From a virus: 64,000 nt of DNA. The stretch lies in the IMG/VR virus record IMGVR_UViG_3300045988_165705. One strand, given 5' to 3'. A program made the translations under genes and the position numbers. This document shows, one piece after another, positions 9,666 to 63,903 of this stretch. Below the pieces are notes generated by a model that worked only from the letters and a program-made list of their open reading frames with translations, did not search any database and was not told the DNA's origin. The first letter of the stretch is position 1. Every line of letters starts with the position of its first letter.

Positions 9666-9682
9666 AGTCCACCTCCTTGCGA

Positions 9683-10048
9683 TTATGTAAAGTCAACAAA
9701 GCCCTCCAAATTGAAAATGTCCGCAGGCGAAAGCGTTTGCTCACCCAGGTCTTTTTCGTCCAGCTTAACAACCTCGATTGCAATGTCCACTTCCATATTG
9801 CACAGCTCATTCAGCTTTGCTTTGAATGCGGTGCAGTCGCTGGGAGTCAGGAATGTGATATTCCCGTCCTCCTTCAGCGTTCCGTGGAACTCGTCCAGAT
9901 ACTTGCGCTCCTCCGTGAGCGCAAACTGATAGGCACTGTCAGCTGCCTGAACCAGCTTATATACCGCATACGCCTTTTTAACAGGCAGCTTGAAGTTGTT
10001 CAGTTTCATCAGAGACTCATAGGCTCTGTTAATCTTTTCTTGAATCAT
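9683..10048 (-). CDS. Hypothetical protein
   Basis: Start moved to the internal ATG (MIQEKINRAY), which is preceded by AAAGGAAAAGAG. The longer track ORF would overlap the upstream gene. Confidence 0.5.
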   Translation of the reverse strand: MIQEKINRAYESLMKLNNFKLPVKKAYAVYKLVQAADSAYQFALTEERKYLDEFHGTLKEDGNITFLTPSDCTAFKAKLNELCNMEVDIAIEVVKLDEKDLGEQTLSPADIFNLEGFVDFT

Positions 10049-34532: not shown

Positions 34533-35564
34533 TTACAGGTCTGACAGTGACTTCTGTGCGTCAGACCGAATATCACCATTCTCGTCAAAGTACTGCGAAA
34601 TCTGTTCCTCTGCGCTCAGGTCTTTATAAACGCGAACCATGTCAGCAGATTCCCACCCGATGATGTCTTGAATGATATTGTCTGGCAAACCGAGCTTGGA
34701 AAGGTGCGTTGTAAAGTAATGCCGCAGACTGTGCCAGTAAAAATCTTCACCTGTCATCCTGCTAAAGGTGTTCGCCCAGCTGTTGAGCGTTGTCTCACTC
34801 ATTTGTTCACTTGTCGTTCCAGCAGGAAACAGCCACTCACTTTCAATACCAAGTTCCGTCCGTTCACGCATCCATGCATCAAAATATGGTTTGAACTTTT
34901 TTGCCAGCGTGTAGCAGTAAATGTATTTGCCCAGGCCGAACCCTTTTGTCTGAATCGGTTCACTGGTCTTGTACAACGCCCCGCCGCATACAAGGTTGTC
35001 ATTTTTGAAATCGTCAACCCGGAATCGGCAAAGCTCTGCCTTGCGTCGCCCACTGCACATAGCGAGAGCCACGGCACAGGCCTTTTTGTTTTGCCCGGAA
35101 GCAAGCAGGTCATCAAGCAGCTTGTCCAGCGCTTCGTCGCTCCACACCGTTTTCTTTCGCACCTGCTGCATAGCTGGGTTCTCTATCTTCCTTACGGTAG
35201 AACGGAACCCCTTAAACTCGTCTTCATCATCCAAGATGTTCTCCACATAGTTGGAGAGCGAAGAAATTGCAGACTTCAAACGCCGCACACGAGCGGGAGA
35301 ATTACCGTTCTCATTGATGAGCCAATGCTGATATGCGGCATAGTCGCGCTTGGAGATTTTCGGGAAAAACTTGTTCCCGTTGTTCTGCAAGTTCCAAACC
35401 CAGAAAATATCAAGGTCATTTGCGTAGCCCGCAATCGTCTTCGGACTGCGCTGCACAGACTGCAGATAAGCAATAAAATCCTGCTTTAGCCGGATGTTTT
35501 CCGGGTTGACCTGACTTAAAAGCTCAGGGCTTGTGATTTCGTTTTGCTTTGTTTTTCGGGGCAT
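34533..35564 (-). CDS. Tyrosine recombinase / phage integrase
   Basis: SAM-like N-terminal domain (TIAGYANDLDIFWVW). Catalytic-domain motifs AMCSGRRKAE, WHSLRHYFTT and WESADMVRVY. Start set at MPRKTKQ. Confidence 0.85.
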   Translation of the reverse strand: MPRKTKQNEITSPELLSQVNPENIRLKQDFIAYLQSVQRSPKTIAGYANDLDIFWVWNLQNNGNKFFPKISKRDYAAYQHWLINENGNSPARVRRLKSAISSLSNYVENILDDEDEFKGFRSTVRKIENPAMQQVRKKTVWSDEALDKLLDDLLASGQNKKACAVALAMCSGRRKAELCRFRVDDFKNDNLVCGGALYKTSEPIQTKGFGLGKYIYCYTLAKKFKPYFDAWMRERTELGIESEWLFPAGTTSEQMSETTLNSWANTFSRMTGEDFYWHSLRHYFTTHLSKLGLPDNIIQDIIGWESADMVRVYKDLSAEEQISQYFDENGDIRSDAQKSLSDL

Positions 35565-35596
35565 ACAAGCCACCTCGCTTTCTGTAGAATTAAAAC

Positions 35597-35672
35597 TGGT
35601 TGCGGGCACCGGAGTTGAACCGATTCCTCAAGGTTTATGAGACCTGCGACTTAACCGCTTGTCCTGCCCGCA
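35597..35672 (-). tRNA. tRNA-Met: tRNA-Met/Ile2 (anticodon CAT)
   Basis: Hand-folded cloverleaf: 7-bp acceptor stem, T-arm ATCGG/TTCAACT/CCGGT, anticodon loop CTCATAA, CCA encoded. The D-stem has only 3 bp and there is one C-T mismatch in the anticodon stem. Confidence 0.75.
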
Positions 35673-35675
35673 ATA

Positions 35676-35761
35676 TGGTGGGAGAGGTTGGATTTGAACC
35701 AACGCAGCCCGAAGGCGGCAGATTTACAGTCTGCTGTAATTGACCGCTCTACCACTCTCCC
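35676..35761 (-). tRNA. tRNA-Tyr: tRNA-Tyr (GTA), class II
   Basis: Acceptor GGGAGAG/CTCTCCC. Anticodon arm GCAGA-CTGTAAA-TCTGC. Long variable arm. T-arm GTTGG-TTCAAAT-CCAAC. CCA encoded. Confidence 0.9.
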
Positions 35762-35767
35762 AAAGTA

Positions 35768-35843
35768 TGGTGAGGTCGGAGGGAATCGAACCCATCGTTA
35801 CCGCCGTGAAAGGGCGGTGTCTTAGCCGCTTGACCACGACCCC
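35768..35843 (-). tRNA. tRNA-Glu: tRNA-Glu (TTC)
   Basis: Acceptor GGGGTCG/CGACCTC. Anticodon arm CCGCC-CTTTCAC-GGCGG. CCA encoded. The T-stem has an internal mismatch. Confidence 0.75.
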
Positions 35844-45610: not shown

Positions 45611-46420
45611 AAAGGCGGTCACGCTAAGACAGCCCTATGGCTAATCCTGAGTATTCAGGCAACCTTGCCACTGTCCGAGTGGGTGGAAACCCACTAAAAC
45701 CTCTAATCGGTTTAGCACCGGTTTTGAGGGGAACACCGGTGCAATCTGAGTTTGAGGCGGATTGCGATATTGATTATACAAGTTCCCCTGCCTAATGCAG
45801 CCTTTGGCGGTCACAAGCCCGCATGAGAAATGCAGAGTGGGTATTGTCAGAGGAATATAAGCGGAGATGTCCGCCACTTCCATGACAGGCAATACAAGTT
45901 GCGGTACTGTTCCCAGACAACTATAAAAATCAGGGCACTTGTAATCCGCAAGGATAAATAATGGATGGTAGTCCGACTGAGGGACTATAAAGCGCAGTTT
46001 ACCCGATAAATTCGGGCGTCGCCGGTGCATGAGAGTTAGGCTCATGGTACGAGATAGTGAAAATCCCCGGAGGTTTGCGCCTATGAACCTAAGTGCGGCT
46101 TGCATAACTGATGGCTATACAAGAACGACTTTTGAAAGTAAGTAGTATCGTCCGAGTTTTCTACCCAAGGGTATTGTGCTCCGAGGAGCCGAAAGCAAGG
46201 GCATATAGATATGAAAGCCGAATTTGGTCAAGTATTGCGAATTGAACAGAACAGTCCCCGATAGAAATGAGTATCGGAAATGGTGCGTGTTCCGTTCGAT
46301 ACTGCAACGGCTGTGGGGCAAAATATACCCCATGCGCCGAAATGCAGAGCCGGAACCATTTCAAATATCGGGTTTATCATTGATAGAGCCGCCGAGGGTT
46401 TTTCTTCGGCGGTTTCATTG
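45611..46420 (+). ncRNA. Candidate long structured ncRNA (ORF-free, hairpin-dense)
   Basis: No ORF of 60 aa or more with an RBS on the plus strand. More than 10 local hairpins, for example GTGGGT-GGAA-ACCCAC, CACCGGT...ACCGGTG, GCGGA-GATG-TCCGC, CATGAG...CTCATG, CCGATA...TATCGG and GTGATAA...TTATCAC. It ends in a terminator-like hairpin at 46388-46419 followed by TTTCATT. The family was not recognised. Confidence 0.35.
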
Positions 46421-47916: not shown

Positions 47917-48422
47917 TTTCCCAGTTTGCTGCCTTTCACCGTAACACCGTCGAACTCAGCGCAATAATTGCAGGGTTTCCAAATTGAAAACGACAGGGGT
48001 TTCAGAACGGTAATGGTGAAAGGTTTGCAGGCGCATAGGAGGCGACATGGTCTGGCGATTCGGCATTCCCGGAGTCTTTGAAATCCGCCGGTATGGCTTT
48101 GGCGGAATGTATCTGATTATCTGGGAAACATGGTTCACCTTAAAGCGAGGTTCGATGCCGTAAGGCTGGCACGGTACGATTCCGTGGAGTGGTTTCCCAC
48201 TTAACGCTTAGTCCTTGTATTAGTGAAGGTAAGTGAGGGGGCACCCAAAATTCTGAAAGCTTTACAAGGCGTTGGGGACTACGAAAGTGTCCAAGTGTTA
48301 TGGAAATGCTGCCATGACCACGGGATATGATTAAGAAAGTGCATCCTTGGAAGTTGGAGTATTACGGCTATAGCCGTCGGGTGAAACTTCCTCCCGTTAT
48401 CAACAATGGAAGGGAGCTTATC

Positions 48423-50772: not shown

Positions 50773-50862
50773 GGGAAAGTGGCGAAACGGTTAGACGCGG
50801 GGCGAGTAGAGCCCTGGGAGGTTGCGCACCCCTTGTTGGTTCAAATCCAACCTTTCCCACCA
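50773..50862 (+). tRNA. Class II tRNA-like gene, paralogue of tRNA-Tyr with a non-canonical anticodon loop (GAGTAGA)
   Basis: Perfect 7-bp acceptor GGGAAAG/CTTTCCC. The T-arm and 3' end are identical to the tRNA-Tyr at 35676-35761. Long variable arm, CCA encoded. However, there is no nucleotide 26 and position 33 is A rather than U. Confidence 0.55.
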
Positions 50863-50989
50863 ATAGGGAACGATGTTCGTGCTTTGTTTCTGGAGCAAAG
50901 AATGTCCTGTATTTCCAGAATGCAGGAAGCAGCAAAGTGGGGAACATCATGCGGCTGAGTAGCAAGGGGTTCTAAGCCGCTTCTGAGAT

Positions 50990-51065
50990 GGGGATATAGC
51001 TCAGTTGGGAGAGCATCTGCTTTGCACGAAGAGGGTCGCCGGTTCAAGTCCGACTATCTCCACCA
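50990..51065 (+). tRNA. tRNA-Ala: tRNA-Ala (TGC)
   Basis: GGGGATATAGCTCAGTTGGGAGAGC 5' half, G3:U70 pair, anticodon loop TTTGCAC, CCA encoded. One mismatch each in the anticodon stem and the T-stem. Confidence 0.85.
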
Positions 51066-51716: not shown

Positions 51717-52529
51717 ATGAGCAGCAAGATGAACTACATACCATACATATCTTCCTACGAGGATATTCGAGCCGAAATGAGCAACGACTTGCAGTATAGG
51801 CTGGCGAACAGGACTGTCAGAACTTCTCTCGGACGCCCTCTCTATTATCGCATCAATGTCCAGATGATTACGACACAGGAGTGTCCGTTCCACTGCCCCT
51901 TCTGCTTGGAACGACAGAATCCCATGTCGGGAGACAATGATTTTGATGCACAAATCGAGGCGTTGAGGCGGGTTTTGCTGGAGCATCCCAACGCACGGTT
52001 GTCTATCACGGGCGGCGAACCCGGCCTTTATCCCAAGCACATCGCCAATATCGTTGAGACTTATCGTAAGAACGGTAATGGTGTGTTTTGTTCCATCAAC
52101 ACTACGGGATTCAGCACGGAACTGAATGGGCTGGCGCACATCAACCTTTCCCGCAACGACTATGTCTGGACAGACCCGGCTGGTTTTCCGGGGTGTACTG
52201 TCCAAACGATAGTTGAGAATCCTACGCTTACTTTTATCAAGGACTACATGAAGATGGATGCCAGCAGCTTTTCTTTTCGGTTCCTGAGCGGCCTTGAAAA
52301 GAAAGATTACCCTGTAGATATTTGGAATGATTTGCAGCAGGACGCAGATGTCGATGTGCATACATTCAGAATCGGCGATTTCTTTGTGTATGCAACCTTT
52401 GACTATGCAGGAAAACACGCTCGTGTAACACTCGGTGATATGTGGCAGCAGCGTCACAATGATTACGGTGACGGCTATTCCAATATCATCATCCATCCGG
52501 ATGGCCGTGTGTCCACCAACTGGAGATAA
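51717..52529 (+). CDS. Radical SAM enzyme (function unknown)
   Basis: CPFHCPFC (CxxxCxxC cluster motif) and SITGGEPGL (SAM-binding GGE motif). GAGGAGGG RBS. 270 aa with no SPASM-type extra Cys clusters. Confidence 0.8.
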   Translation: MSSKMNYIPYISSYEDIRAEMSNDLQYRLANRTVRTSLGRPLYYRINVQMITTQECPFHCPFCLERQNPMSGDNDFDAQIEALRRVLLEHPNARLSITGGEPGLYPKHIANIVETYRKNGNGVFCSINTTGFSTELNGLAHINLSRNDYVWTDPAGFPGCTVQTIVENPTLTFIKDYMKMDASSFSFRFLSGLEKKDYPVDIWNDLQQDADVDVHTFRIGDFFVYATFDYAGKHARVTLGDMWQQRHNDYGDGYSNIIIHPDGRVSTNWR

Positions 52530-53238: not shown

Positions 53239-53325
53239 GCGGGTATGCTGGAATCGGCAGACAGGCAAGCTTGAGGTGCTTGTGCCCATCAGGGCGTGTG
53301 AGTTCAAATCTCACTACCCGCACCA
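53239..53325 (+). tRNA. tRNA-Leu: tRNA-Leu (GAG)
   Basis: Acceptor GCGGGTA/TACCCGC. Anticodon arm CAAGC-TTGAGGT-GCTTG. Long variable arm. T-arm GTGAG-TTCAAAT-CTCAC. CCA encoded. Confidence 0.9.
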
Positions 53326-53453
53326 CGGAGCCCTTCTAACAAATATGACTGGGGCAAGATTACCGGCTAACGGCTTTCCAATAGAGAGTACGCCTGTAAT
53401 GACAAAATAGTTAGTCAGATGGTGGTTGGCTGACCTAAAGGCCACTTTCAGAC

Positions 53454-53537
53454 GCAGGATTGGTGGAATTGGCAGACACGGCGGATTCAAGTCCCGCTGC
53501 CTTCGGCGTAAGAGTTCAAGTCTCTTATCCTGCACCA
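53454..53537 (+). tRNA. tRNA-Leu: tRNA-Leu (CAA)
   Basis: Acceptor GCAGGAT/ATCCTGC. Anticodon arm GCGGA-TTCAAGT-CCCGC. Variable arm with a TTCG loop. T-arm AAGAG-TTCAAGT-CTCTT. CCA encoded. Confidence 0.9.
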
Positions 53538-53687
53538 TTAGCTTTGCCACGGTGTTGTGTCCTTTCAGTAGCTCCCTCCTTTTCGTCCGTCGTTCATCGT
53601 TTTCCTTTCAAACGGCAAAGCTGCTGTGGAATCCAAGCGTGTCCACCATTCAGGGCGCACCGTAACAGCCGGTTTATGCTTCCGTAG

Positions 53688-53763
53688 CTCAGTTGGTAGA
53701 GCACCGCCCTTTTAAGGCGGGTGTCATGGGTTCAAGCCCCATCGGGGGCACCAATTCTATTTC
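53688..53763 (+). tRNA. tRNA-Lys: tRNA-Lys (TTT)
   Basis: Canonical D-arm TAGCTCAGTTGGTAGAGC. Anticodon arm CCGCC-CTTTTAA-GGCGG. T-arm ATGGG-TTCAAGC-CCCAT. CCA encoded. Two G-U pairs in the acceptor stem. Confidence 0.9.
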
Positions 53764-53781
53764 GTGAGGAGGTCATCTATC

Positions 53782-54447
53782 ATGGGGGTTCATATTTATG
53801 TGGCCGCAAATACAGTGTGGGCTTTTTTTCAAAGCCATAAAGACCGCCTGTCAAAGGAGATGGTCGTCATTGCAGAGAACAAGGACACAGAGTATGCGGT
53901 ATATCTTACCGAGGATAATGCGCTTCCTTTGTTTTCCGTGTGTAAGGGCGATGCAAAACCGGAGTATGAGGAGTGTGTTCTGACCGAGACAGGTTGTAAT
54001 GAAGCGGCGAAACGCCTGTATGCACAATATCTTTTCCCTGTCATGGTTGTTGATGGGAAGAAATGCCCGCCGGAATTGCCGGAGGAAGAACCAGAAGATT
54101 TGACTCGGCAGGATATGGAGGATGCTCAGTATGAGCGCGAGGACGAGCTTTCTCTCGCTCTGTGTGATTTCCTGTCCGTTGTCTTGCAGGAGTCGATAGA
54201 CAACAGTCCTGAAATCATGGATACATACGGAGAAATGTTTGTAAACGAGGTCTTAGACCACTTCTTGGAGTACCTCGCTCAGGAGCAGTGCCTGCCAATT
54301 TACCGCCCCATGATTATCACGGATGAAGAAACTGGCTGCGAGGTCTATACGGAGTTTCCGTATGAGGATGATGCTGGTTATCCAGTGGATGATGAAGAGT
54401 TTAGTGGAGGCTTTTGGGATGATATTAAGGGCGGCGGTCTGAGATGA
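53782..54447 (+). CDS. Hypothetical highly acidic protein
   Basis: Start moved to the ATG after GAGGAGG, because the track start at 53764 abuts the tRNA-Lys. 221 aa, very Glu/Asp-rich in the C-terminal two thirds. Confidence 0.6.
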   Translation: MGVHIYVAANTVWAFFQSHKDRLSKEMVVIAENKDTEYAVYLTEDNALPLFSVCKGDAKPEYEECVLTETGCNEAAKRLYAQYLFPVMVVDGKKCPPELPEEEPEDLTRQDMEDAQYEREDELSLALCDFLSVVLQESIDNSPEIMDTYGEMFVNEVLDHFLEYLAQEQCLPIYRPMIITDEETGCEVYTEFPYEDDAGYPVDDEEFSGGFWDDIKGGGLR

Positions 54448-54463
54448 CCCGCCCTTCTTTTAT

Positions 54464-54554
54464 GGGGAGTTGGCCGAGTGGCTTATGGCGGCGGTCTTGA
54501 AAACCGTTGACGGTGATGAGCCGTCCGTGGGTTCAAATCCTACACTCCCCGCCA
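54464..54554 (+). tRNA. tRNA-Ser: tRNA-Ser (TGA)
   Basis: GGGGAGTTGGCCGAGTGG 5' end. Anticodon arm GCGGT-CTTGAAA-ACCGT. Long variable arm. T-arm GTGGG-TTCAAAT-CCTAC. CCA encoded. Confidence 0.9.
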
Positions 54555-54579
54555 CATTTTTTGATTGGAGGTCTGTGAA

Positions 54580-55239
54580 ATGCCAAACTGTTTGGATAGT
54601 ATGCCATGGCGTTCCTTAAAGGGGCTTGGAAAATATGCGGCTGATTTCTTGCAGCTCGGAGATTACCGCAATGTTGTGCTGAAGAACGGTGCGCAGGTTC
54701 AGTTTCGCATCATCGGCTTCAATCACGACAAGACGAGCGACGGTTCTTTGGCTCCTATCTCTTGGGAGATGGTGGATTGTCTGCCTAACACTTACCCCTG
54801 GAACAGGCGCGACACCAATGAAGGGTCGTGGGAAGCAACGCAGATTCGCCATCGGCTCAACGATGCGGATGGCGACATTCATCGTCTGATTCCCGACGAG
54901 ATTTTGGATGTTGTCACACCAGTCATTAAGCAGACAGCTGATGTGTACACTGGCGAGAATCGTATTATCGAGACGCTGGACTCTTTCTGGATAAAGTCTG
55001 AGAAGGAATTGTATGGACGCAATATTTACTCCGCTCCCGGTGAGGGACATTGGTACGAGTGGTATCGTCAGGAAGATGTCGCATGGTTTAAGCTCCGCAA
55101 CGGCAATCCTGAGTACACCATGTTGCGTTCTCCTATTTCTGGCGACAGCCGTTTTTTCTGTTGTGTCTACGGCTCCGGCGGCGCCAGCCGTTACTACGCC
55201 AGCTACAGTTGTGGCGTCGCTTTCGGCTTCTGCACTTAA
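54580..55239 (+). CDS. DUF6273-like lectin-fold protein carrying a DGR-type variable C-terminus
   Basis: GGAGG RBS. N-terminal half (LGDYRNVVL...FRIIGFNHD...ISWEMVD...W..T.IR..LN) and C-terminal LRSPISGDSRFFCCVYGSGGASRYYASYSCGVAFGFCT fit the ...WLRSP...GV.P.F.. domain type. The last 115 nt repeat at 35895-36009. Confidence 0.75.
   Translation: MPNCLDSMPWRSLKGLGKYAADFLQLGDYRNVVLKNGAQVQFRIIGFNHDKTSDGSLAPISWEMVDCLPNTYPWNRRDTNEGSWEATQIRHRLNDADGDIHRLIPDEILDVVTPVIKQTADVYTGENRIIETLDSFWIKSEKELYGRNIYSAPGEGHWYEWYRQEDVAWFKLRNGNPEYTMLRSPISGDSRFFCCVYGSGGASRYYASYSCGVAFGFCT
55125..55239 (+). repeat. Variable-repeat-like segment, copy 1 (partner 35895..36009)
   Basis: See the partner entry. The invariant stretches GTTTTTTCTGTTGTGTCT and GTTGTGGCGTCGCTTTCGGCTTCTGC contain no adenine at all. 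Confidence 0.8.
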
Positions 55240-55431: not shown

Positions 55432-55830
55432 ATGGCAAAAATCACTATCGCAGGCGACGCAGCTGTCGTAACTTCCGCAATGAAGCTGGAGGACATCAAG
55501 ACCATTGAGAAGTATCGTCCCAAGGAGCTGGTTCTCAAGGGTGGCGAGGACGGCAAGGAGCCTATCTTCGCTGTGGGTACCACCAATGGTGCCGGTAACA
55601 TCAACGCTTTCGGTGCTTCTTTCGGCGCTGAGACCCGCGACGATGAGAAGCTGGCGTGCATCACCCTGTTCCTCGACGGCGTGACCGGCGATGTTAAGGA
55701 CTGGGTCGCTGACCGTCTGGGCGCCGCCATCATCAGCCTCAACAAGCTTGAGGAGAAGCTGCCTGCCGTCCTCGATGAGATTGCGGCTGAGAAGGCAAAT
55801 GTGCTGAGCAACATCACGGTCGCTCAGTAA
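55432..55830 (+). CDS. Hypothetical protein
   Basis: GAAGGAG RBS. 132 aa. Followed by hairpin GGGGCGGC-tcat-GCCGCCCC (55845-55864). Confidence 0.65.
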   Translation: MAKITIAGDAAVVTSAMKLEDIKTIEKYRPKELVLKGGEDGKEPIFAVGTTNGAGNINAFGASFGAETRDDEKLACITLFLDGVTGDVKDWVADRLGAAIISLNKLEEKLPAVLDEIAAEKANVLSNITVAQ

Positions 55831-55910: not shown

Positions 55911-56138
55911 ATGATTAAGGTTACTGTTGGCAACAATGTCAAGCGCGAGTCCGTTATCATCGACGAGTCCACCACCCTGCGTGCCTGTCTGGAGGCGAAC
56001 GGTGTTGACTATACCCGTGGCGTCATGCACCTCGACGGGTCTTCCCTGAACCCCGGCGACCTCGACAAGACCTTCGCTCAGTTCGGTATCACCGAGAAGT
56101 GCTTCCTGCTGAATGTGGTCAAGGCCGATAACGCCTGA
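55911..56138 (+). CDS. Small ThiS/MoaD/ubiquitin-like (beta-grasp) candidate
   Basis: 75 aa. MIKVTVGNN..ESVIIDESTTLRACLEANGVD......LDGSSL.PGDLDKTF.....EKCFLLNVVK follows the strand-helix-strand pattern and the L.(D/P)GD motif of ThiS-like proteins. The C-terminus is ...KADNA, with no GG. Confidence 0.45.
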   Translation: MIKVTVGNNVKRESVIIDESTTLRACLEANGVDYTRGVMHLDGSSLNPGDLDKTFAQFGITEKCFLLNVVKADNA

Positions 56139-56160
56139 TTCACAAGCAATAGACCAATTG

Positions 56161-56186
56161 AGCCGCCCATTCGGGCGGCTCTTTCT
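56161..56186 (+). terminator. Rho-independent terminator
   Basis: AGCCGCCC-attc-GGGCGGCT followed by CTTTCT. Confidence 0.7.
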
Positions 56187-56188
56187 AT

Positions 56189-56273
56189 GGGGAATTGGCG
56201 GAACAGGCAGACGCTGCGGACTTAAAATCCGCTGGTGCATACCATATCGGTTCGACTCCGATATTCCCCACCA
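56189..56273 (+). tRNA. tRNA-Leu: tRNA-Leu (TAA)
   Basis: Acceptor GGGGAAT/ATTCCCC. Anticodon arm GCGGA-CTTAAAA-TCCGC. Long variable arm. T-arm ATCGG-TTCGACT-CCGAT. CCA encoded. Confidence 0.9.
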
Positions 56274-56301
56274 TATAACAAAATGAATAGAGGTGTTCCT
56301 A

Positions 56302-57761
56302 TGTTCAAAACAAGCATTTCGTCAACGCCGTTTACCACGGAAGCTGCCAATAGCTACTTTACCAACATCACCGGCGGTGCTTTCGGCAACGACTGCTCTT
56401 TCCTTGCGACGCTTCGTGCCTTAGTTGCACCTCGAATCAAAGAGGGAGAGTCCGTCAATCTGCTGTTCGGCTCTTCTGATTATACGGCAGACACGATTCG
56501 TAGTGTTCCGGCGGACAGAGCCGTTTCGGCTATCTGCAACAACTATGATATGAGCGCAACCGGTCAGGTTATTATTCATAGTTTGCGGGCAGACTCGGAC
56601 AGCAATCTTGCCAACATGAAAATCATCGCCGACAAGTTTGCCTCTGTGTATGCGGGGTATCATCGCCTCGAAAAGTTCGCAGAGTTCTACCGCAAGTCTT
56701 TTGCTGTGGATTGCTACATCAACCCTGAGCTTAAGAGCGTTATTATCTTTGCGGACAATCTCGACATCCGTAAAATGCATTACTTGCAGGTTTCCATCCT
56801 TGCATTCCTGCCGTGGTATCTGAACCAGCAGGAGGGCATCACCGAGGATGAGCTTGCGTTGGTCAAGTCCCTTCGTGAAAAGAACTCGGAAGAGTATGAA
56901 CACTGTCTTGCCAAGCTTGCGGAACGGTATGATTTCCGAACTGCAAGAATCCGTCAATTGCTGAAGGGGTTTGAGACCCGCTACGAGCAGATTGAGTGTG
57001 ACCGGGTCAGACAGATGATTCAGAACATCGACCGAGAAATTACCCGTCTGAATGACAACATCGGTGAGCAGTTCACAAAGCGTAACGAACAGTGCATTCG
57101 CTTGCTGGGTCTTGAGCAGAAAGTTGCCGATGGCGGTGAGGACTCCGAAATCATGGAGTACTTCCTGTGCAATACCAAGCTGGTTCTGGAGCGAGTGACC
57201 AACACCGATATGTATTTCACAGTCAAGGATTGCCTGGAGTATTTCGACCGGGATATGGCGGAGCAAATCATCAATCGTGCTACCAGTTTTGTGTACCGTC
57301 CTGATGGTGGTTCCGGCCACACAGGCGCAGCCGCTGAAAAGATGAAGAAGCTGATGACCGAAATCTTTGTCAGCGAGGAGCCGCGTCTGAAAATCCGTGT
57401 CTGTGCATCGTATCGCTTTGACCTCAATGGTAGTGTTTCTCCGCAGGGACATCGAAGCTTTGGCGCGGAGTACGCTGATTACCTTCCCAATCCCCATATC
57501 AACGACTACAACTGCATGGGCAACTATACCACCACTATCAACAGGCTCCTCAAAAATCACGATTACATCGGTGCTTTGGAGCAGTGTATTGCTTCTTGTA
57601 AGAGCCTTAACTGGGGCGACTCTGCGGTCATGACTTCGTTTATGCGGTCTATGTGGGGCAACGGCAGCAACAATCGCTGCATTGAACTGCCTGATGGTCG
57701 TGTTGTAAAACCCAACGAAGCCATCACTTGGTTGGAGCAGCAAGCACAGACAAATGAGTAA
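56302..57761 (+). CDS. Hypothetical 486-aa protein (possible E2-like C-terminal region)
   Basis: Start moved past the tRNA to the ATG after AGAGGTG. The only functional hint is LPNPHINDYNCMGNY, which loosely recalls the E2 HPN...C active-site pattern. It sits between the Ubl candidate and the JAB gene. Confidence 0.65.
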
Positions 57762-57777
57762 GCGGAGGAGGCGCAAA

Positions 57778-58737
57778 ATGAGTAAACCCATTAAGATGAC
57801 CGAGCAATACATGGCTGAGTGCCGTGCAGATTTTGAAAAGGCTTTGCAGCTCACAAAGCTGGCAGATGGGAAACTGTCTTTCACAAAGGTGTTCACCTGT
57901 GGTGACAGAAAAGCAACCGTTTTCTTCACCGCTGGGGCATGGGCAAAGATGGCGCTCCTTATCAAGGAATTCGATAAGGAGGTCGCTTGGCATGGTGTTG
58001 CGCATCGTGCAGCCGACGAAGCCGTAGATGAGTACATCATCGAAGACATCGTGGTTTATCCGCAGGAGGTCTCCGGAACCACGGTTGAGATGGACACTGA
58101 GAAGTACGCTGAGTGGTTGATGCAGAACGCAGACGATGAGCGCTTCAACAACATTCATATGCAGGGACATTCCCATGTCAATATGCCGACCAGCCCGTCC
58201 TCTGTAGACCTTAATCATCAGGAGGAAATCCTCAATATGCTGGGGGACGATGATTTCTACATCTTCATGATTTGGAACAAGTCGTTTGTCAGTACAAATA
58301 AAATCTATGACCTCAAGAAGAATGTCCTGTTTGAAGATAAGGACATCACCGTCAAGCTTGAGGGTGAACATGAGGGGCTGGCTGAGTTCCTCAAGACCGC
58401 CAAAGATATGGTCAAGCAGAAAAGCTATACCTATGGGAGCTATGGCGGATATAGCGGGTACAGTGGCAACCGCCCACCTTATTCTGTCACCCCCTATAAT
58501 CCTCTTCCGGACAGCAAAAAGGATGAGAAAGAAGATAAGGGCGACAAGAAGTCCGATAAGAAGTCTGACGACAAGAAATCGGACAAGAAGTCCGAAAAGG
58601 CCGAGAAGCCGCGCACAAGAATCGGCGCAGGCTGGCAGGGAAAGAATGCCTGTCAGCAGTCCATGTGGGACGAAGATGACGATGATTCTGTGTACCCCTA
58701 CGGCGGCTACAGCGACCAGTATCTTGGAGGTGAATGA
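57778..58737 (+). CDS. JAB/MPN (JAMM) metalloprotease with low-complexity C-terminal tail
   Basis: YPQEVSG (Glu) followed by GHSHVNMPTSPSSVD, which is H-x-H-x7-S-x2-D. GGAGGAGG RBS before the ATG at 57778. The C-terminal about 100 aa are Gly/Tyr/Ser-rich and then Lys/Asp/Ser-rich, ending in YLGGE. Confidence 0.8.
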   Translation: MSKPIKMTEQYMAECRADFEKALQLTKLADGKLSFTKVFTCGDRKATVFFTAGAWAKMALLIKEFDKEVAWHGVAHRAADEAVDEYIIEDIVVYPQEVSGTTVEMDTEKYAEWLMQNADDERFNNIHMQGHSHVNMPTSPSSVDLNHQEEILNMLGDDDFYIFMIWNKSFVSTNKIYDLKKNVLFEDKDITVKLEGEHEGLAEFLKTAKDMVKQKSYTYGSYGGYSGYSGNRPPYSVTPYNPLPDSKKDEKEDKGDKKSDKKSDDKKSDKKSEKAEKPRTRIGAGWQGKNACQQSMWDEDDDDSVYPYGGYSDQYLGGE

Positions 58738-58739
58738 TA

Positions 58740-59417
58740 ATGGCAATGGATTTGTCCAAAAGCTACGAGTATTTCCAGCCTGAAAAGGTAGAGGCTCGCA
58801 TCAATATCGTCGGATGCGGTTCTGTCGGCGCAACGCTGGCAGAGAACCTTGTCCGTCTTGGCATTACCAATCTCGCTCTGTGGGATATGGATGTCGTGAA
58901 TCCGCATAATCTGGCAAATCAGATTTTCCGTCAGCAGGATATTGGCCGCCCCAAGGTGGAAGCATTGGCAGATATCCTGTTTGAAATCAATCCTGAAATC
59001 AAGGATGACCTCAAGCTTTATGCCAAGGGGTGGAGCGGGCAGCAGCTCTCCGGATATGTCTTCCTTTGCGTAGACAATATCGAACTGCGCCGCCAGATTG
59101 TTGAAAAGCACTTCGACAATCCCTATGTCAAAGCGATGCTGGATTTCCGCACTCTGCTGGAATCTGCGCAGCATTATGCTGCTGACTGGTCTGACTACAA
59201 GATGAAGAAAGACCTGCTGAACTCCATGAGCTTCAGTCATGAAGAAGCAGCCGAGGAAACGCCAGTCTCCGCTTGCGGCATTACGCTGGGTGTCGCCCCC
59301 ACCGTCAGAGCTATCTGCGCACTTGGCGTTGCCAACTTTGTCAACTTCATTCGTGGAAAAGGATTGAAAAAGCTTATCATTCTGGATGCGTTCAACTTTA
59401 TGTTGGACGCTTTTTAA
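58740..59417 (+). CDS. ThiF/MoeB/E1-like adenylyltransferase
   Basis: Rossmann motif INIVGCGSVGA, LWDMDVVNPHNLANQ and DIGRPKVEAL match the E1-like nucleotide-binding core. 225 aa, a short E1 like those on mobile elements. Its start overlaps the end of the JAB gene. Confidence 0.8.
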   Translation: MAMDLSKSYEYFQPEKVEARINIVGCGSVGATLAENLVRLGITNLALWDMDVVNPHNLANQIFRQQDIGRPKVEALADILFEINPEIKDDLKLYAKGWSGQQLSGYVFLCVDNIELRRQIVEKHFDNPYVKAMLDFRTLLESAQHYAADWSDYKMKKDLLNSMSFSHEEAAEETPVSACGITLGVAPTVRAICALGVANFVNFIRGKGLKKLIILDAFNFMLDAF

Positions 59418-59451: not shown

Positions 59452-60261
59452 ATGGATACTACCGTCGAACGCCTTAAGGTCGGGACACCGGTCATCATTG
59501 GTTCTTACGGTGTCAACAACGATGAGCCGCACCCTGTTGTTTGGCTGAAAGGTAGTCCAAACTGCGATTTTATCACCGAGTGCGCCGTGGATTATCTTTG
59601 CTTTGATGCACCGGAAAGAACTGGAGACGGCAGGTGCAATCTTGGCAATCCCGACTATCGTCTGTCCAATATTCATACATACCTAAACAGCGACAGAGAC
59701 GATTGGTTTCGCAAAACTCATGAAGCAGATGCCCCTCCGAATAATGTTTTCAGCAACCGAGCACAAAGCTATCGCAACCATTATGGGTTTCTATATTTCT
59801 TTGAAGATTATGAACTCGATAGCTTGCAGATGCAGCAGTATGTGGTTGATGGTGAGACGCTCAGTTCCATCATTCGACTTCCTACTATCACCGATATCCT
59901 TGATGACCAGTTGAAGCTGAAGCTGTTTTCCAAGAAGGGTATTCGTCCCAAAGCAACAGAAGACTGTGCTGATAAAAAAGGCCGGTTTGGTAATTTCAGT
60001 TGGGAGTCTTACATGAACTTCTGGTTGGCAGGCAAGCAGGATGAATTCAGAGGCTATGCTTTGACTCTTAGTAGGTCTGGGTATTGTGAGAGGAAATATC
60101 CCCGTGACTGTGCGGGGCTTAGGCCGATGTGCCGGTTGAAACCGGAAACAGTGGTAGAGGTTGATGAAAACGGCGTAGCCCACATCAAACCATACGCATT
60201 GAAAAACGAAACCTGCACAGATGCAGAACTGTTCGAGCTATTAGGTGTGGCGCAGCCTTAA
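59452..60261 (+). CDS. DUF6273-like lectin-fold protein (third paralogue, no shared variable repeat)
   Basis: LKVGTPVIIGSYGVNNDEPHPVVWLKG...L.....IHTYLNSD and C-terminal FWLAG......GYALTLSRSGY.......CAGLRPMCRL fit the same domain type as 54580..55239. There is no nucleotide identity to the 115-nt repeat. Confidence 0.7.
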   Translation: MDTTVERLKVGTPVIIGSYGVNNDEPHPVVWLKGSPNCDFITECAVDYLCFDAPERTGDGRCNLGNPDYRLSNIHTYLNSDRDDWFRKTHEADAPPNNVFSNRAQSYRNHYGFLYFFEDYELDSLQMQQYVVDGETLSSIIRLPTITDILDDQLKLKLFSKKGIRPKATEDCADKKGRFGNFSWESYMNFWLAGKQDEFRGYALTLSRSGYCERKYPRDCAGLRPMCRLKPETVVEVDENGVAHIKPYALKNETCTDAELFELLGVAQP

Positions 60262-60273
60262 AATGCGCCATTG

Positions 60274-60597
60274 AACTGTAACGAATTACCCTTTTCGGGG
60301 GCTTCACGCCAAAGGCTGAAGTAACAAATTGTCGGGGAGGAAAACACCGCCTGCCCAGAAGGGTAACCAGCGACTCCTCCGGAGTCATCAGGTGCTTTGG
60401 ACATCCACCAGGAAACCAACAGCCGGAATAGCACAGCAGACCTGGCTTGTCAAGTCCTATCCTTCACAAAACCCACCCAAATCACGACAATTATCCTCAA
60501 CTCAACTAAAAAGATACAGGCAAATGCAGCTCACTCAGCTCGCTGCAGATGAGCTTCTTTTGATTCAAACGCAGCAACACTCATGTAGGTTACAGTT
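60274..60597 (+). ncRNA. Retron msr/msd-like ncRNA module 1
   Basis: Terminal inverted repeat AACTGTAAC (60274-60282) / GTTACAGTT (60589-60597), with G at 60283. Hairpin CTTCA-CGCCAAAGGC-TGAAG (60302-60321), then GTAACAA. TGTAGGTT lies before the 3' repeat. The module ends 7-28 nt before the RT start. Confidence 0.6.
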
Positions 60598-60624
60598 ACG
60601 ACTATGAAAAGGAGGCATAGGGCG

Positions 60625-61761
60625 ATGGTATATATCACGGTCATGCAATCCCCGATTTATCACCAAATGACACTGGAAGAGTTCCTCTTTCAAAACTTCC
60701 AAGCGCCAACCATATTAAACACAAATGTTTCTAATACACGAACCTATGCATATGAAACGGTAAGTGAGCATTTCACAAGCCGCATTGATACGAACGCTCT
60801 TATCTGCAAACTGGTGCGCTTTAATGAGCAAACGGAGGCGCTTCGCGCACAGGAACGCAGTACTTTGTATGAAACATTCCACATCCCCAAAAAGTCTGGT
60901 GGTTTGCGTCGTATTGATGCTCCTAAACCGGAGCTGATGAACGCATTGCGGAATCTCAAGACTATTTTTGAAGAAGATTTCCATGCATTGTATCACACTT
61001 CTGCATTCGCCTATGTAAAAAACAGATGTACGGTTGATGCGGTCAAGCGCCATCAGAAAAACAACAGCAAATGGTTCGGCAAGCTGGATTTGCACGATTT
61101 CTTTGGTAGCACCACGCTGGATTATGTTATCAAAATGTTTTCTATGGTGTTCCCATTCAGCGAAATCGTAAAGTTTCCCAACGGCGAGGCAGAGTTGCGG
61201 AAGGCCTTGGATTTGGCTTTTCTCAATGGAGGTCTGCCGCAGGGAACTCCACTTTCTCCGCTGATTACCAATGTGATGATGATTCCTGTTGACTATAAGC
61301 TTGCCAATGCATTCCGTGATTTTGACAAGCAGCGGTTCATTTACACCAGATATGCCGATGACTTCATCATTTCGTCTAAGGTTGATTTCGATGTGCATCG
61401 TGTAGAAAAACTCGTGGTGGATACGCTGCATGAATTTGGAGCGCCGTTCACCATCAACGAAAGCAAAACGAGATACGGCTCTTCCGCAGGTCGTAACTGG
61501 AATCTTGGTGTTATGCTCAACAAGGACAATGAAATTACTGTCGGCCATAAGAAGAAGCGCCAGTTCCAGTCCATGCTTTACAACTACATTACCGATAAAC
61601 GCAAGGGCATCTCGTGGCCGAGAGAAGATGTGCAAACTATGCAGGGCTTACATAGCTACTATCGCATGGTAGAGCCGGAGACTATCGATGCCATCGTGAA
61701 GCACACCAACGAAAAAATGGAGACAGATGTCCTGCGGCTTATCAAAGACGATTTAAGATAA
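60625..61761 (+). CDS. Retron-type reverse transcriptase
   Basis: Motifs IPKKSGGLRRIDAP, AFAYVKNRCTVDAVKRH (NAxxH-like), KLDLHDFFGST, GLPQGTPLSPLITN, YTRYADDFIISS, INESKTRY and LGVMLNKDNEITVGHKKKRQ (region-Y-like). It has QG..SP, not the DGR (I/L)G...SQ motif. Start placed at the ATG 9 nt after AAGGAGG; the ATG at 60604 is also possible. Confidence 0.85.
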   Translation: MVYITVMQSPIYHQMTLEEFLFQNFQAPTILNTNVSNTRTYAYETVSEHFTSRIDTNALICKLVRFNEQTEALRAQERSTLYETFHIPKKSGGLRRIDAPKPELMNALRNLKTIFEEDFHALYHTSAFAYVKNRCTVDAVKRHQKNNSKWFGKLDLHDFFGSTTLDYVIKMFSMVFPFSEIVKFPNGEAELRKALDLAFLNGGLPQGTPLSPLITNVMMIPVDYKLANAFRDFDKQRFIYTRYADDFIISSKVDFDVHRVEKLVVDTLHEFGAPFTINESKTRYGSSAGRNWNLGVMLNKDNEITVGHKKKRQFQSMLYNYITDKRKGISWPREDVQTMQGLHSYYRMVEPETIDAIVKHTNEKMETDVLRLIKDDLR

Positions 61762-61792
61762 TCCCTTTGGCGGTTTGGGGTTAAACCGCCAT

Positions 61793-62397: not shown

Positions 62398-63099
62398 ATG
62401 ATATATGTAACAGGCGATACTCACGCCAATATCGACATTGAAAAGCTCAATACAACAAAGTTCCCGCAGCAGAAAAACCTGACAAAGGATGACTACCTGA
62501 TAATATGTGGTGACTTTGGATTGTGCTGGGACGGCTCACGCAGAGAAATGTGGTGGCAGGACTGGCTCGCAGCCAAAAATTTCACCACCCTTTGGATTGA
62601 TGGAAACCACGAAAACTTTGATATGCTCTACGAGTTCCCGTTAGAGGATAAGTTCGGTGGCAAAGTCAGGCAAATTGCACCTGACATTTATCATCTGGAT
62701 AGAGGTCAGGTTCTTGCCATCAATGGTAAGAAAATCTTCTGTATGGGCGGCGCCCGCTCGGTGGACAAAGCGTATCGCACGGAGCATATTTCATGGTGGC
62801 AGCAGGAGATGCCGTCAAATGAGGAGATGGAGCGTGCAGTTTGTGCTCTGGAGCAGAACAACTGGACAGTTGATTATGTTGTAACGCACTGCGCTCCCCG
62901 CAGCATCCAGACAATGCTGGCAAGTTGGTATGAAAACGACCCGATGGTCAGTTTTTTGGAACGCATTCGTCAAGACCTTCGTTTCAAGCGGTGGTATTTC
63001 GGCCACTACCATGTGGACAAACAACTCAATGACCAGTTTGTTGCCCTGTACAATCGGGTAATCCCGATTTCAGATATGCAGATGTGGCGGAATAGGTAG
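62398..63099 (+). CDS. Metallophosphoesterase (calcineurin-like phosphatase family)
   Basis: MIYVTGDTHAN, ICGDFG, DGNHENF, GGARS and FGHYH are the ordered MPP metal-ligand motifs. 233 aa. Confidence 0.8.
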   Translation: MIYVTGDTHANIDIEKLNTTKFPQQKNLTKDDYLIICGDFGLCWDGSRREMWWQDWLAAKNFTTLWIDGNHENFDMLYEFPLEDKFGGKVRQIAPDIYHLDRGQVLAINGKKIFCMGGARSVDKAYRTEHISWWQQEMPSNEEMERAVCALEQNNWTVDYVVTHCAPRSIQTMLASWYENDPMVSFLERIRQDLRFKRWYFGHYHVDKQLNDQFVALYNRVIPISDMQMWRNR

Positions 63100-63748
63100 A
63101 CGCTACAAATTACAGACAGGATGCCGACCTCTCAAATGGCGGAGACCGATGCGCTGTAAGGTCATGCGGGGTGCAAATCCCCGCCATCTGCGCTACCGGC
63201 ATGGCATTGCCGTGGGAAGGACATAATGTTTCTCCAGAATTATGCCGGTGTGCCGACACATAGAAAGCGGCTGGGCAATGCGGAGCCTGTAGAGACAAAA
63301 TCCGTAGAATATTGAAGCGGCAGGCGTTCCGTCATGCGTTTACCGTGGAGTTCCAAAGGGTTGTGCGTATTCCTCAAGGCGGATAGGTGAGAGCCAAAAG
63401 AAAACGCACTGCAGATACAGACCTGCGTTACCAAAGGTGTCGCGCTGGCAGACCGCAAGTTCGCAATAGTCTGCCACTTATACGGGCGAATGTTCCAAGG
63501 CTGGCGAGGCGGTCTCCAAAACCGCTTGTGGTGGGTTCGATTCCCAACCGTCCATGCCAGAGGCTGGGTAGCGCCCAGATGATGTGAGAGATTATCGGCT
63601 TACCTCACAGAGAATGACAATGCCCGCTGAAAACTGCGCGAGGAGATGCGTCTCCCTTGTGATTTAGCCCAAGAGTGGCCGGTTGGTATGCTTGCGGGGC
63701 GCCAGCTGCACATGAGCGTGTGACAATCTAAGCGGGAAGCCGACCAAT

Positions 63749-63824
63749 GCTGGAATAGCTCAATTGGTAGAGCAACGCTCTCGTACAGCGTAGGTTCTCG
63801 GTTCGACTCCGAGTTCCAGCTCCA
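63749..63824 (+). tRNA. tRNA-Thr: tRNA-Thr (CGT)
   Basis: Acceptor GCTGGAA/TTCCAGC. Anticodon arm ACGCT-CTCGTAC-AGCGT. T-arm CTCGG-TTCGACT-CCGAG. CCA encoded. Confidence 0.9.
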
Positions 63825-63827
63825 TTT

Positions 63828-63903
63828 GCTGGTGTAGCTCAGTTGGTAGAGCATCGGTTTTGTACTCCGAGGGTCGCGGGTTCGAGCCCTGTCACCAGCT
63901 CCA
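63828..63903 (+). tRNA. tRNA-Thr: tRNA-Thr (TGT)
   Basis: Acceptor GCTGGTG/CACCAGC. Canonical D-arm. Anticodon loop TTTGTAC. T-arm GCGGG-TTCGAGC-CCTGT. CCA encoded. Confidence 0.85.

Follow-up and report, generated by a model that had tools for sequence, protein, structure and literature searches.

Conserved genes for a putative ubiquitin-like conjugation pathway beside a retron in large phages of gut Clostridia

Introduction

Conjugation of ubiquitin-like proteins (Ubls) has so far been described in prokaryotes either as a cellular process, as with the SAMPs and TtuB, or as part of antiphage defense by the host, in type II CBASS (cyclic oligonucleotide-based antiphage signaling system), Bil and Bub. 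In SAMPylation, proteins are reversibly conjugated by a Ubl, an E1 and a JAMM protease, with neither E2 nor E3. Bub is a diverged pathway with oxyester intermediates and a peptidase-E1 fusion. The genes of Bil run in the order Ubl, E2, deubiquitinase (DUB), E1, and BilC pre-processes BilA, its Ubl (PMC10557695), while the substrates of Cap2 in type II CBASS end in Gly or Ala (PMC10097602). Here we have analyzed a locus in IMGVR_UViG_3300045988_165705, a stretch of 64,000 nt (the window; all positions refer to the full stretch), that codes for a 75-aa protein of ubiquitin fold (hereafter Ubl), a 486-aa protein (p486), an intact JAMM protease (JAB) and a ThiF-type E1. Together with a 132-aa protein (p132) these are fixed in order in two clades of large phages of gut Clostridia, and a retron with its reverse transcriptase (RT) lies beside them. 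On balance we lean towards reading the set as a phage-core pathway of Ubl activation, conjugation and deconjugation that is a member neither of Bil, nor of CBASS, nor of the sulfur carriers. What is new is a Ubl toolkit fixed in abundant gut phages, with a non-Gly end and without a recognizable E2, in which p486 and p132 each stand for a very large, uncharacterized protein family. Full-text literature searches retrieved no description of a phage-encoded Ubl-E1-JAB pathway, nor of a retron with such neighbors. Proteins were scanned against the Pfam, NCBIfam, PHROG and PADLOC libraries, and RNA genes were identified with ARAGORN and Rfam.

The module had been likened to Bil in a first-pass annotation of the sequence, on account of its gene order. 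The order is indeed the same (Ubl, large protein, JAB, E1), the JAB plausibly pre-processes an extended Ubl as in Bil, and BilB has Cys138 and His151 (PMC10557695) where p486 likewise has a Cys with a conserved His nearby. The likeness is positional, however, and closer kinship is not supported, the E1 here having a single domain and the Ubl no terminal Gly. The present genes are phage-encoded and phage-core, with an apparently obligatory extra gene, p132. Where Bil has a UBC E2 there is p486, 486 aa long and without a detectable UBC fold. BilD has an IAD, a CYS domain and a Zn site, whereas the E1 described here is a single adenylation domain of 223 aa without them, and the Ubl ends in Asn-Ala, unlike the reactive Gly exposed by the DUB in Bil. 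Three of the four features that define Bil (UBC E2, multi-domain E1 and Gly terminus) were not found here. In its workings the module is most like Bil or SAMPylation and is a member of neither. The SAMP/UbaA/HvJAMM1 set, and TtuB/TtuC of Thermus, also combine a Ubl, an E1 of MoeB/ThiF size and a JAMM protease with no E2 or E3 (see also PMC4443979), and a SAMP-type set is the nearest architectural analogue of the three recognizable genes. Those Ubls, in contrast, have a Gly-Gly end and also work as sulfur carriers. Their genes are found in cells, usually scattered, and the systems have no equivalents of p486 or p132 and no retron.

The remaining cellular systems are more distant. Type II CBASS has an E1 that acts on a C-terminus that can be Ala, and a JAB, Cap3, that reverses conjugation. 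The present module has no CD-NTase and no E1-E2 fusion, and its predicted substrate is a true beta-grasp Ubl. Regulators of the CapH/CapP type did not turn up beside it in the library scans, which included no search aimed at them. The module is not type II CBASS. Bub shows that bacterial Ubl systems can leave canonical chemistry; it works with Ser instead of Cys and with a Ser-His protease, whereas the E1 and p486 keep Cys and the protease is a JAMM enzyme. The CysO/MoeZ/Mec+ and QbsE/QbsC/QbsD systems gather a Ubl, an E1 and a JAMM protease that trims past the reactive end in one locus, but they have Gly-Gly, a rhodanese-fused E1 and recognizable biosynthetic partners, none of which is present here, and we found no ThiG- or MoaE-type neighbor of the module. 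It is neither Bub nor a ThiS/MoaD system.

A comparable arrangement is found in another phage. In crAss001, a cultured Bacteroides gut phage (L136, 77484-86041), the order gp78 (444 aa)-gp77 (JAB)-gp76 (ThiF) mirrors p486-JAB-E1. The JAMM motif of gp77 is intact (HSHNNMATFFSGTD) and this protein resembles the JAB of the module. The three genes lie within the replication module, where gp77 is labelled no more closely than 'metalloprotease' and gp76 than 'thiamine biosynthesis protein'. No similarity was detected between gp78 and p486, the ThiF of crAss001 has 383 aa with an N-terminal extension, and homology searches of GenBank phages found no homologue of Ubl, p132 or the retron in it. Phage JAB-E1 pairs, as crAss001 shows, are more widespread than the two clades described below.

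Conservation of the module in two phage clades

A survey of related phages bore out the co-conservation of the cassette. The order p132-Ubl-p486-JAB-E1-RT was kept in about 130 metagenomic loci (given L numbers below) from two phage clades, the window clade of about 115-125 kb and a second one of 140-150 kb, with Oscillospiraceae-type hosts. IMG/VR provided 62 window-clade loci with a relative of p486, on contigs mostly of 60-130 kb. GTDB added 20 further ones, all of them on contigs of metagenome-assembled genomes, mostly binned as Oscillospiraceae, Acutalibacteraceae, Ruminococcus or other Clostridia. Throughout this clade p132-Ubl-p486-JAB-E1 was found wherever the flank sufficed, down to p486 identities of 35-38%, and the RT usually follows. 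In the second clade the six genes appeared in order in all 44 complete loci (44/44). The conserved unit is larger than first described, since it takes in p132 and probably also the retron.

The only GenBank relative of the second clade is MT835544 (L068), from human feces, which was also the only match when Ubl and p486 were searched by tblastn against GenBank phages. The identities between the second clade and the window were 56% for Ubl and E1, 41% for the RT, 38% for JAB, 30% for p132 and 27% for p486. By tblastx, MT835544 and the window had a single gene in common apart from those of the module. We considered MT835544 as an independent lineage and rejected this, because its accessory arm carries NAD-salvage and RNA-repair genes of the same kind as those of window-clade contigs, so that we treat it as a distant relative. 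The two clades are distant cousins within one lineage, and for this reason their synteny is not independent proof of coupling among the genes.

We also used contigs picked by their portal gene and not by p486 (12 of them were also in the p486 list). Eight of these contigs reach 95 kb or more and take in the expected position of the module, and it was present in 7 of the 8. As seven of eight informative near-complete genomes carry it, the module behaves as a core gene set and not as a sporadic moron. In some genomes there are inserts between its genes, namely an RNase H gene, very acidic proteins, a Bro-N-like gene and an endonuclease.

The ubiquitin-like protein

The Ubl gene (55911..56138, plus strand, as are all the features of the block described below) codes for a protein that none of the libraries recognized (hidden Markov models, HMMs, of Pfam, NCBIfam, PHROG and PADLOC). 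An AlphaFold2 (AF2) model built on 38 homologues reached a predicted local distance difference test (pLDDT) score of 89.9. Its topology is beta-beta-alpha-beta-(helix)-beta, with the last 5 residues flexible. When this model was compared with the PDB by Foldseek, the top matches were Ubl domains, SUMO2, ubiquitin and NEDD8, with TM values of 0.6-0.72 and probability 1.00, and the bacterial Ubl of a Ubl-DUB complex (8tyx) was matched as well. We are confident, as far as a predicted structure allows, that the 75-aa protein has a ubiquitin-type beta-grasp fold; structure prediction and Foldseek agree here with the first-pass annotation, which had put it forward as a beta-grasp candidate. A total of 1512 homologues was found. 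Ubl is the best conserved gene of the module, with identities of 75-100% in most window-clade loci, compared with 38-70% for p486, and a few divergent copies of about 36-60%. This is as expected for a modifier that has many partners.

The unusual end of the protein, KADNA, had been pointed out before and is indeed present and conserved. In every version the terminus reads K-x-[D/V/E]-N-A, after which come 0-3 or more residues that vary, and the most divergent copies also keep x-N-A (KAVNA in L061, KLDNA, and KMDNA in clade 2). Within the window clade, Ubl stops at Asn-Ala in 92 of 120 homologues, and the others add A, AA, HQ, ANS or longer extensions. In clade 2 it always extends past Asn-Ala, by R in 41 cases, LAA in 3 and VVM in 1. 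A fixed end with variable residues behind it is characteristic of Ubl precursors whose trimming exposes the reactive residue, and by this analogy the protein looks precursor-like.

Directly downstream of the gene there is a strong intrinsic-terminator-like hairpin (56160-56181, within a feature of 56160..56191) with a stem of 9 bp, 8 of them G-C pairs, and a T-rich tail, which the first-pass annotation did not have. Among 79 distinct loci, 37 show an equivalent hairpin with another stem sequence behind the stop codon of Ubl. To judge from these sequences, the hairpin probably makes p132-Ubl a separate and more abundant transcript.

Two other observations concern this part of the locus. The loop of the hairpin is inverted between very close relatives while the stem is kept, as in the window (56160-56181, ATTC) versus L007 (7859-7880, GAAT). 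A comparison of L001 with L002 gives CCAGACGG versus CCGTCTGG. In both cases the center of the palindrome appears to flip. Besides, L079 codes at 3649-4194 for a 181-aa protein in which an uncharacterized N-terminal domain is fused to a C-terminal half that is a diverged Ubl domain without the Asn-Ala end.

The E1 and the JAB protease

The E1 homologues start at MDLSK, which places the start of the window gene at 58746 (58746..59417), even though its open reading frame (ORF) opens at 58734. The protein is a single Rossmann domain of about 223 aa. Its assignment as a ThiF/E1-like adenylyltransferase was confirmed by Pfam ThiF (PF00899; E=6.3e-24 over residues 20-209, 84.9 bits against a threshold of 28.1). 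The best relatives in the PDB were the active adenylation domains of UBA7/UBA1, followed by MoeB, UBA5, Cap2, TcdA, ThiF and MccB. Over 47 distinct sequences K9, G27xGxxG32, D51, D53, N59, Q63, K74, D114 and R119 were invariant, and these include the motifs noted in the first pass (GCGSVG, D51/D53, N59 and Q63). C181, located in the short crossover region, was present in 46 of the 47. Also invariant in the family is N62 (window 58917-58925, residues 59-63 'NLANQ'). It replaces the Arg of SNLxRQ, a phosphate-contacting position in published E1/MoeB structures. The members have 223-227 aa and one ThiF domain, with no insertion and no CxxC pairs.

We also examined whether this E1 groups with the MoeB/ThiF enzymes of cofactor biosynthesis. 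It scored far below the cut-off of every NCBIfam equivalog (ThiF, MoeB, UbaA, TcdA and PRTRC ThiF), for example 77.8 bits against 159 for PRK08644, 65 against 152 for thiF_fam2 and 52 against 377 for MoeB. A Cap2-type NCBIfam model scored it about as well as the ThiF models did. The PADLOC models of Cap2 (E1-E2) matched only its Rossmann core (4e-17). Since all the equivalogs are below threshold and Cap2 models score like ThiF models, the E1 is, at the level of sequence, an orphan lineage and not an enzyme of a cofactor pathway. As a separate observation, short ThiF genes are also found in Xanthomonas/Erwinia jumbo phages and in Flavobacterium and Acinetobacter phages.

The protease gene (57778..58737) is 16 nt from p486 and 8 nt from E1; the genes here are tightly packed or overlapping. 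The JAMM motif is intact, as had been noticed: E68 and H131-S-H133-x7-S141-x2-D144 were invariant in 45 homologues. Homologues start at MSKPIKM. A catalytic domain of about 200 aa is followed by a low-complexity C-terminal third with conserved PYNP and EKPRTRIGAGW. The matches were to the PADLOC JAB model (E=4.7e-4) and to Pfam Prok-JAB (E=0.094, 13 bits against a threshold of 25), and a profile of the family aligned RPN11 of the PDB across the active site (E=0.066). The putative JAB assignment rests mainly on the motif. We looked at the "LGGE" of the JAB C-terminus as a concealed Ubl-like end and discarded it, because it is not conserved.

The 486-aa and 132-aa proteins

The third component, p486 (56301..57761), is a two-domain protein without a recognized family. 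In its AF2 model (pLDDT 89.7, predicted TM score 0.52) a long helix (224-277) connects two alpha/beta domains, one N-terminal and the other C-terminal. The family is very large and uniform in length: 961 close homologues were found, there are 2177 clusters at 50% identity, and the proteins all have about 480-500 aa. D31, R39, P396, H399, C405, N437 and D440 were invariant across both clades. The motif LPNPHINDYNCMGNY, quoted earlier as recalling an E2 site, is present, with P396, H399 and C405 (P396-x2-H399-x5-C405) among these invariant residues. C405 is the sole invariant Cys of the protein and lies within the P-x-x-H-x5-C loop, its best conserved feature.

The suggestion that p486 is E2-like found no support in any of the searches for a UBC fold. 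The full-length protein had no match in the four libraries, and the N- and C-terminal domains, split and run with four or three divergent members, had none in Pfam at E values up to 10. UQ_con and Prok-E2 of Pfam matched neither the whole nor the split protein. Against the PDB neither phmmer nor a family profile gave a match, and Foldseek with the full model found nothing better than E=0.32, the top 50 containing no E2. An hhalign comparison of the family with the canonical E2s UBE2D2, UBE2N, UBE2I and UBE2L3, which is a weak test, gave a probability of 0.1%. The only structural neighbor was an uncharacterized phage protein, A0A8S5PR93 (Foldseek against BFVD). We therefore rejected p486 as an E2 on library, profile and structure searches. 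The order of secondary structures in residues 283-486 (alpha, beta-beta, two helices, beta-beta, the loop containing PNPH..C, and further helices) can be read as UBC-like with an insertion, and we did not count this as evidence.

The gene of p132 (55432..55830), which the first-pass annotation had missed, was found directly 5' of the Ubl gene in every locus with sufficient flank, in both clades. S15, K27, L33, G61, F64, A75, G97 and E107 are invariant, with no Cys among them, and the protein had no match in Pfam, PHROG, NCBIfam or PDB. Its position suggests that p132 is an obligatory partner of Ubl, and it is a candidate partner, adaptor or substrate. We also tried it as the missing E2 and rejected this, given that none of its Cys residues is invariant and that profile comparison showed no similarity to E2s. 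In L001 the p132-Ubl pair is doubled (9120-9831 and 17269-17980), as it is in L002 and L003. Both copies are equally close to the window proteins (63% for p132 and 83% for Ubl), and they lie on either side of p486-JAB-E1-RT-Metallophos, forming an 8-kb direct repeat. The three assemblies that show this are independent.

A possible conjugation pathway

The pathway that we lean towards would run as follows. A p132-Ubl transcript with a terminator of its own would supply Ubl in excess, and JAB would trim the residues past Asn-Ala where these are encoded, as with other Ubl precursors. The E1, acting as a homodimer like MoeB/ThiF, would adenylate the C-terminal Ala75 carboxylate and then probably form a thioester on Cys181. 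Ubl could next be passed to Cys405 of p486, with His399 nearby, p486 being in that case a non-canonical carrier or ligase. If the module is a Ubl conjugation pathway, we see the chances of p486 having this role as roughly even. As an alternative, the E1 might transfer Ubl directly, as in the E2-free SAMPylation of archaea. Either way Ubl would end on amine groups of target proteins, and JAB would also reverse the conjugates. With its invariant Lys27, p132 would be the nearest candidate substrate or adaptor. Co-expressed with Ubl, it would be a stoichiometric partner or a substrate.

Several points weigh against this pathway. The C-terminal residue of Ubl is not Gly, and the majority of window-clade Ubls need no trimming. 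A UBC-fold E2 was not found in the module, and p486 could have a different role, as a substrate, a structural protein or another enzyme. The E1 has an Asn in place of the conserved ATP-contacting Arg, and has neither a Zn site nor a CYS domain. HMM support, taken alone, is weak for JAB. All the loci belong to one broad lineage with a common accessory arm. Lastly, we infer all the steps beyond the fold and motif assignments.

If the module does conjugate, the tagging of virion, host or rival proteins by a virus could be studied in bacteria in a tractable system. The module would also suggest a new family of thiol-transfer enzymes, and a possible function for the crAss-like JAB-ThiF pairs labelled "thiamine biosynthesis".

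The adjacent retron

Downstream of the module, and likewise missed in the first-pass annotation, there is a retron-type non-coding RNA (ncRNA, msr-msd; 60274..60597) with a1/a2 inverted repeats and hairpins, followed by a retron-type RT (60604..61761) recognized by Pfam, NCBIfam and PADLOC. The a1 arm AACTGTAAC (60274-60282) and the a2 arm GTTACAGTT (60589-60597) bound a stretch of 306 nt, and a2 ends 7 nt 5' of the RT start codon. The layout is a1, a conserved G (60283, the putative priming G), two covarying hairpins, a variable part of about 200 nt and a2. Related loci repeat it with covarying arms (TGTAAC, TGTAAT, CGTGAT, CTGATAC and others). An inverted repeat of at least 8 nt was present at this site in 98 of 117 distinct loci, versus 77 of 585 shuffles. 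The a1 and a2 arms pair at 8.5 of 9 positions with their own partner, versus 6.4 of 9 across loci, and there are compensatory changes in 11 of 13 hairpin pairs. No Rfam family matched the ncRNA.

The RT matched Pfam RVT_1 (E=4e-19), the retron St85 RT of NCBIfam (E=2.7e-52, 177.8 bits, below the cut-off of 235) and RT_II-A of PADLOC (E=1.4e-47). Two motifs appear altered when inspected by eye, DAVKRH and ITVG being found where retrons have NAXXH and VTG, as these are defined in the retron census (PMC7736814). The retron shares with described ones an ncRNA with covarying a1/a2, a G after a1 and msr hairpins, directly 5' of a retron-type RT, and as far as sequence can tell it is genuine. It differs from them in being phage-borne, with a long ncRNA (about 270-350 nt) and an RT under the NCBIfam cut-off. 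It also has no known retron effector, and Ubl, E1 and JAB neighbors are not listed for any type (PMC7736814). A phage retron is of interest in itself, for retron biology and for retron tools.

The RT adjoins the module in nearly all loci of both clades, and the retron may be regulatory or merely linked. This proximity raises another explanation, which is compatible with conjugation chemistry: the whole block p132-Ubl-p486-JAB-E1-ncRNA-RT would be one retron-coupled system. In such a system the multicopy single-stranded DNA (msDNA) with the RT would be the sensor, the gate or the target of the Ubl machinery, much as bacterial retrons gate their effectors, the Ubl pathway would be the effector arm, and the role would be superinfection exclusion by a temperate phage, or counter-defense. 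We regard this as unlikely. The retron is sequence-supported and adjacent in both clades, and in L088 the ncRNA and RT are located between JAB and E1. There is no strong terminator between E1 and RT, and a terminator-like hairpin was found by a hairpin scan after the RT (61768-61791). Tyrosine recombinases in the window and in MT835544, together with over-long contigs, hint at lysogeny, and the known bacterial Ubl systems (Bil, type II CBASS and Bub) are all conflict systems. However, the adjacency is confined to a single phage lineage with a syntenic arm, in which unrelated genes insert freely between those of the module. In L081 the stretch of about 6 kb that follows E1 contains no RT. The retron census (PMC7736814) has no type with ThiF, JAB or Ubl partners, and the core-like fixation differs from the patchy occurrence of defense morons.

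A bolder version joins both ideas, and this too we regard as unlikely. The core would be a complete Ub-like conjugation system of a new architecture (Asn-Ala end, MoeB-sized E1, JAMM maturase/deconjugase, the p486 family as Cys/His enzymes replacing E2/E3, and p132 as partner) with functional coupling to the retron, so that RT-msDNA gates it or is modified by it. If true, this would be the first Ubl conjugation system of a bacterial virus, plus a new retron type.

Chemistries other than conjugation

A sulfur-carrier or small-molecule pathway of the ThiS/MoaD/CysO/QbsE type seems to us quite improbable. It would have Ubl adenylated by the E1 and converted to a thiocarboxylate with sulfur donors of the host. 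Then p486, perhaps with p132, would be the synthase (cf. MoaD-MoaE or ThiS-ThiG), and JAB would trim the tail or release the adduct in the way of Mec+ and QbsD. Its end result would be the thio modification of a metabolite, a tRNA or a DNA base. A Ubl, a short E1 and a JAB are the classical architecture of CysO/MoeZ/Mec+ and QbsE/QbsC/QbsD, as is well established (for the framework see PMC1779556). The best NCBIfam E-values of the E1 go to ThiF models, the small gene adjoining that of Ubl recalls moaD-moaE, and the arm is rich in tRNAs and has a radical-SAM gene. Against all this, the characterized carriers (ThiS, MoaD, CysO, QbsE, TtuB and Urm1) end in Gly-Gly where Ubl ends in Asn-Ala, and the E1 is far under all ThiF/MoeB equivalog cut-offs and has no rhodanese domain. 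We detected no ThiG, ThiH, MoaE, CysM or PP-loop partner, and neither p132 nor p486 had matches of these kinds. Furthermore, among the top 50 Foldseek matches of the Ubl model were ubiquitin, SUMO and NEDD8 and not ThiS or MoaD.

A non-conjugating chemistry like that of MccB or PaaA is very doubtful indeed. JAB would here remove the Ala, and E1 would nucleotidylate the exposed Asn or cyclize it, to give an N-P linked nucleotide or a succinimide, and Ubl would become a modified protein toxin or a signal instead of a tag. In favor of it, the penultimate Asn is invariant, the phosphate-binding motif of the E1 is atypical (Arg to Asn), and ThiF-like enzymes do act on a C-terminal Asn (for a review see PMC12596934), MccB and PaaA being among the PDB matches of the E1. 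Against it, the Ala itself is invariant with variable residues only after it, which speaks for Ala as the mature terminus. The E1 matches MccB much more weakly than Uba, MoeB and ThiF, and at about 223 aa it is without the N-terminal peptide-clamp domain of MccB. Besides, the substrate is a folded Ub-like domain and not a short peptide.

Phage context and flanking genes

The window is phage DNA, as had been supposed. PHROGs identified on the minus strand the terminase large subunit (31445-33166), the portal (29939-31426) and tail proteins (10316-13846), all in the same window as the cassette. A plus-strand arm rich in tRNAs begins near 50.7 kb, and here the four ORFs and the intervening tRNA of the first-pass annotation are all present in the sequence. 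Its start of p486, at 56302, was one base out of frame (the ORF starts at 56301). The tRNA, a tRNA-Leu(UAA) found by both ARAGORN and Rfam (56189..56273), lies between the Ubl gene and p486. It is sited elsewhere in MT835544, and other loci carry different inserts between these two genes, for example an RNase H gene at the tRNA position in L043. This tRNA is a passenger of the tRNA-rich arm, outside the conserved module.

The cassette had also been described as bracketed by two lectin-like genes of DUF6273 type. This was not confirmed. Upstream, the gene at 54565-55239 had a weak Pfam match to DUF6273 (E=0.009). Downstream, the 269-aa protein p269 (59452..60261) had no Pfam match; its only match was a weak PHROG one, Hoc-like (E=3e-10). 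It is a variable passenger, missing from many window-clade loci, and MT835544 has no p269 homologue between E1 and RT. We rejected the lectin-like flanks as part of the unit because both are missing from many related loci.

Very acidic Asp/Glu-rich proteins of about 160-230 aa are found in these phages. The window copy (53764-54447) is upstream of the module, and similar-looking acidic proteins are located between JAB and E1 in L043 (10565-11053), L051 (10451-10963), L084 (8029-8625) and L050 (10489-10980). They may be DNA-mimic-like. A tyrosine recombinase/integrase gene (34533-35609, minus strand) adjoins a tRNA cluster, MT835544 also encodes integrase-family genes, and some related contigs have 223-359 kb, exceeding a phage genome. 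The integrases and the over-long contigs are a hint that the phages may be temperate.

ARAGORN counted 12 tRNA genes in the accessory arm and Rfam added one at 35600-35672; they are found at 35600-35843, 50773-51065, 53239-54554, 56189-56273 and 63482-63903. Other structured RNAs of the plus-strand arm, with Rfam matches above the gathering score, were RAGATH-16, RAGATH-4, RAGATH-36 and drum RNAs, at 46002-46072, 46249-46383, 48167-48295 and 63307-63412. The arm also encodes a radical-SAM/Fer4_12 protein (51717-52529) and a calcineurin-like phosphoesterase (62398-63099). In relatives (L004, 15844-21473) it contains NAMPT, a PRPP-synthetase-like gene, NAD synthase, RtcB and RlaP, genes of NAD salvage and RNA repair. 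This gene content suggests that the arm is enriched in host-conflict functions.

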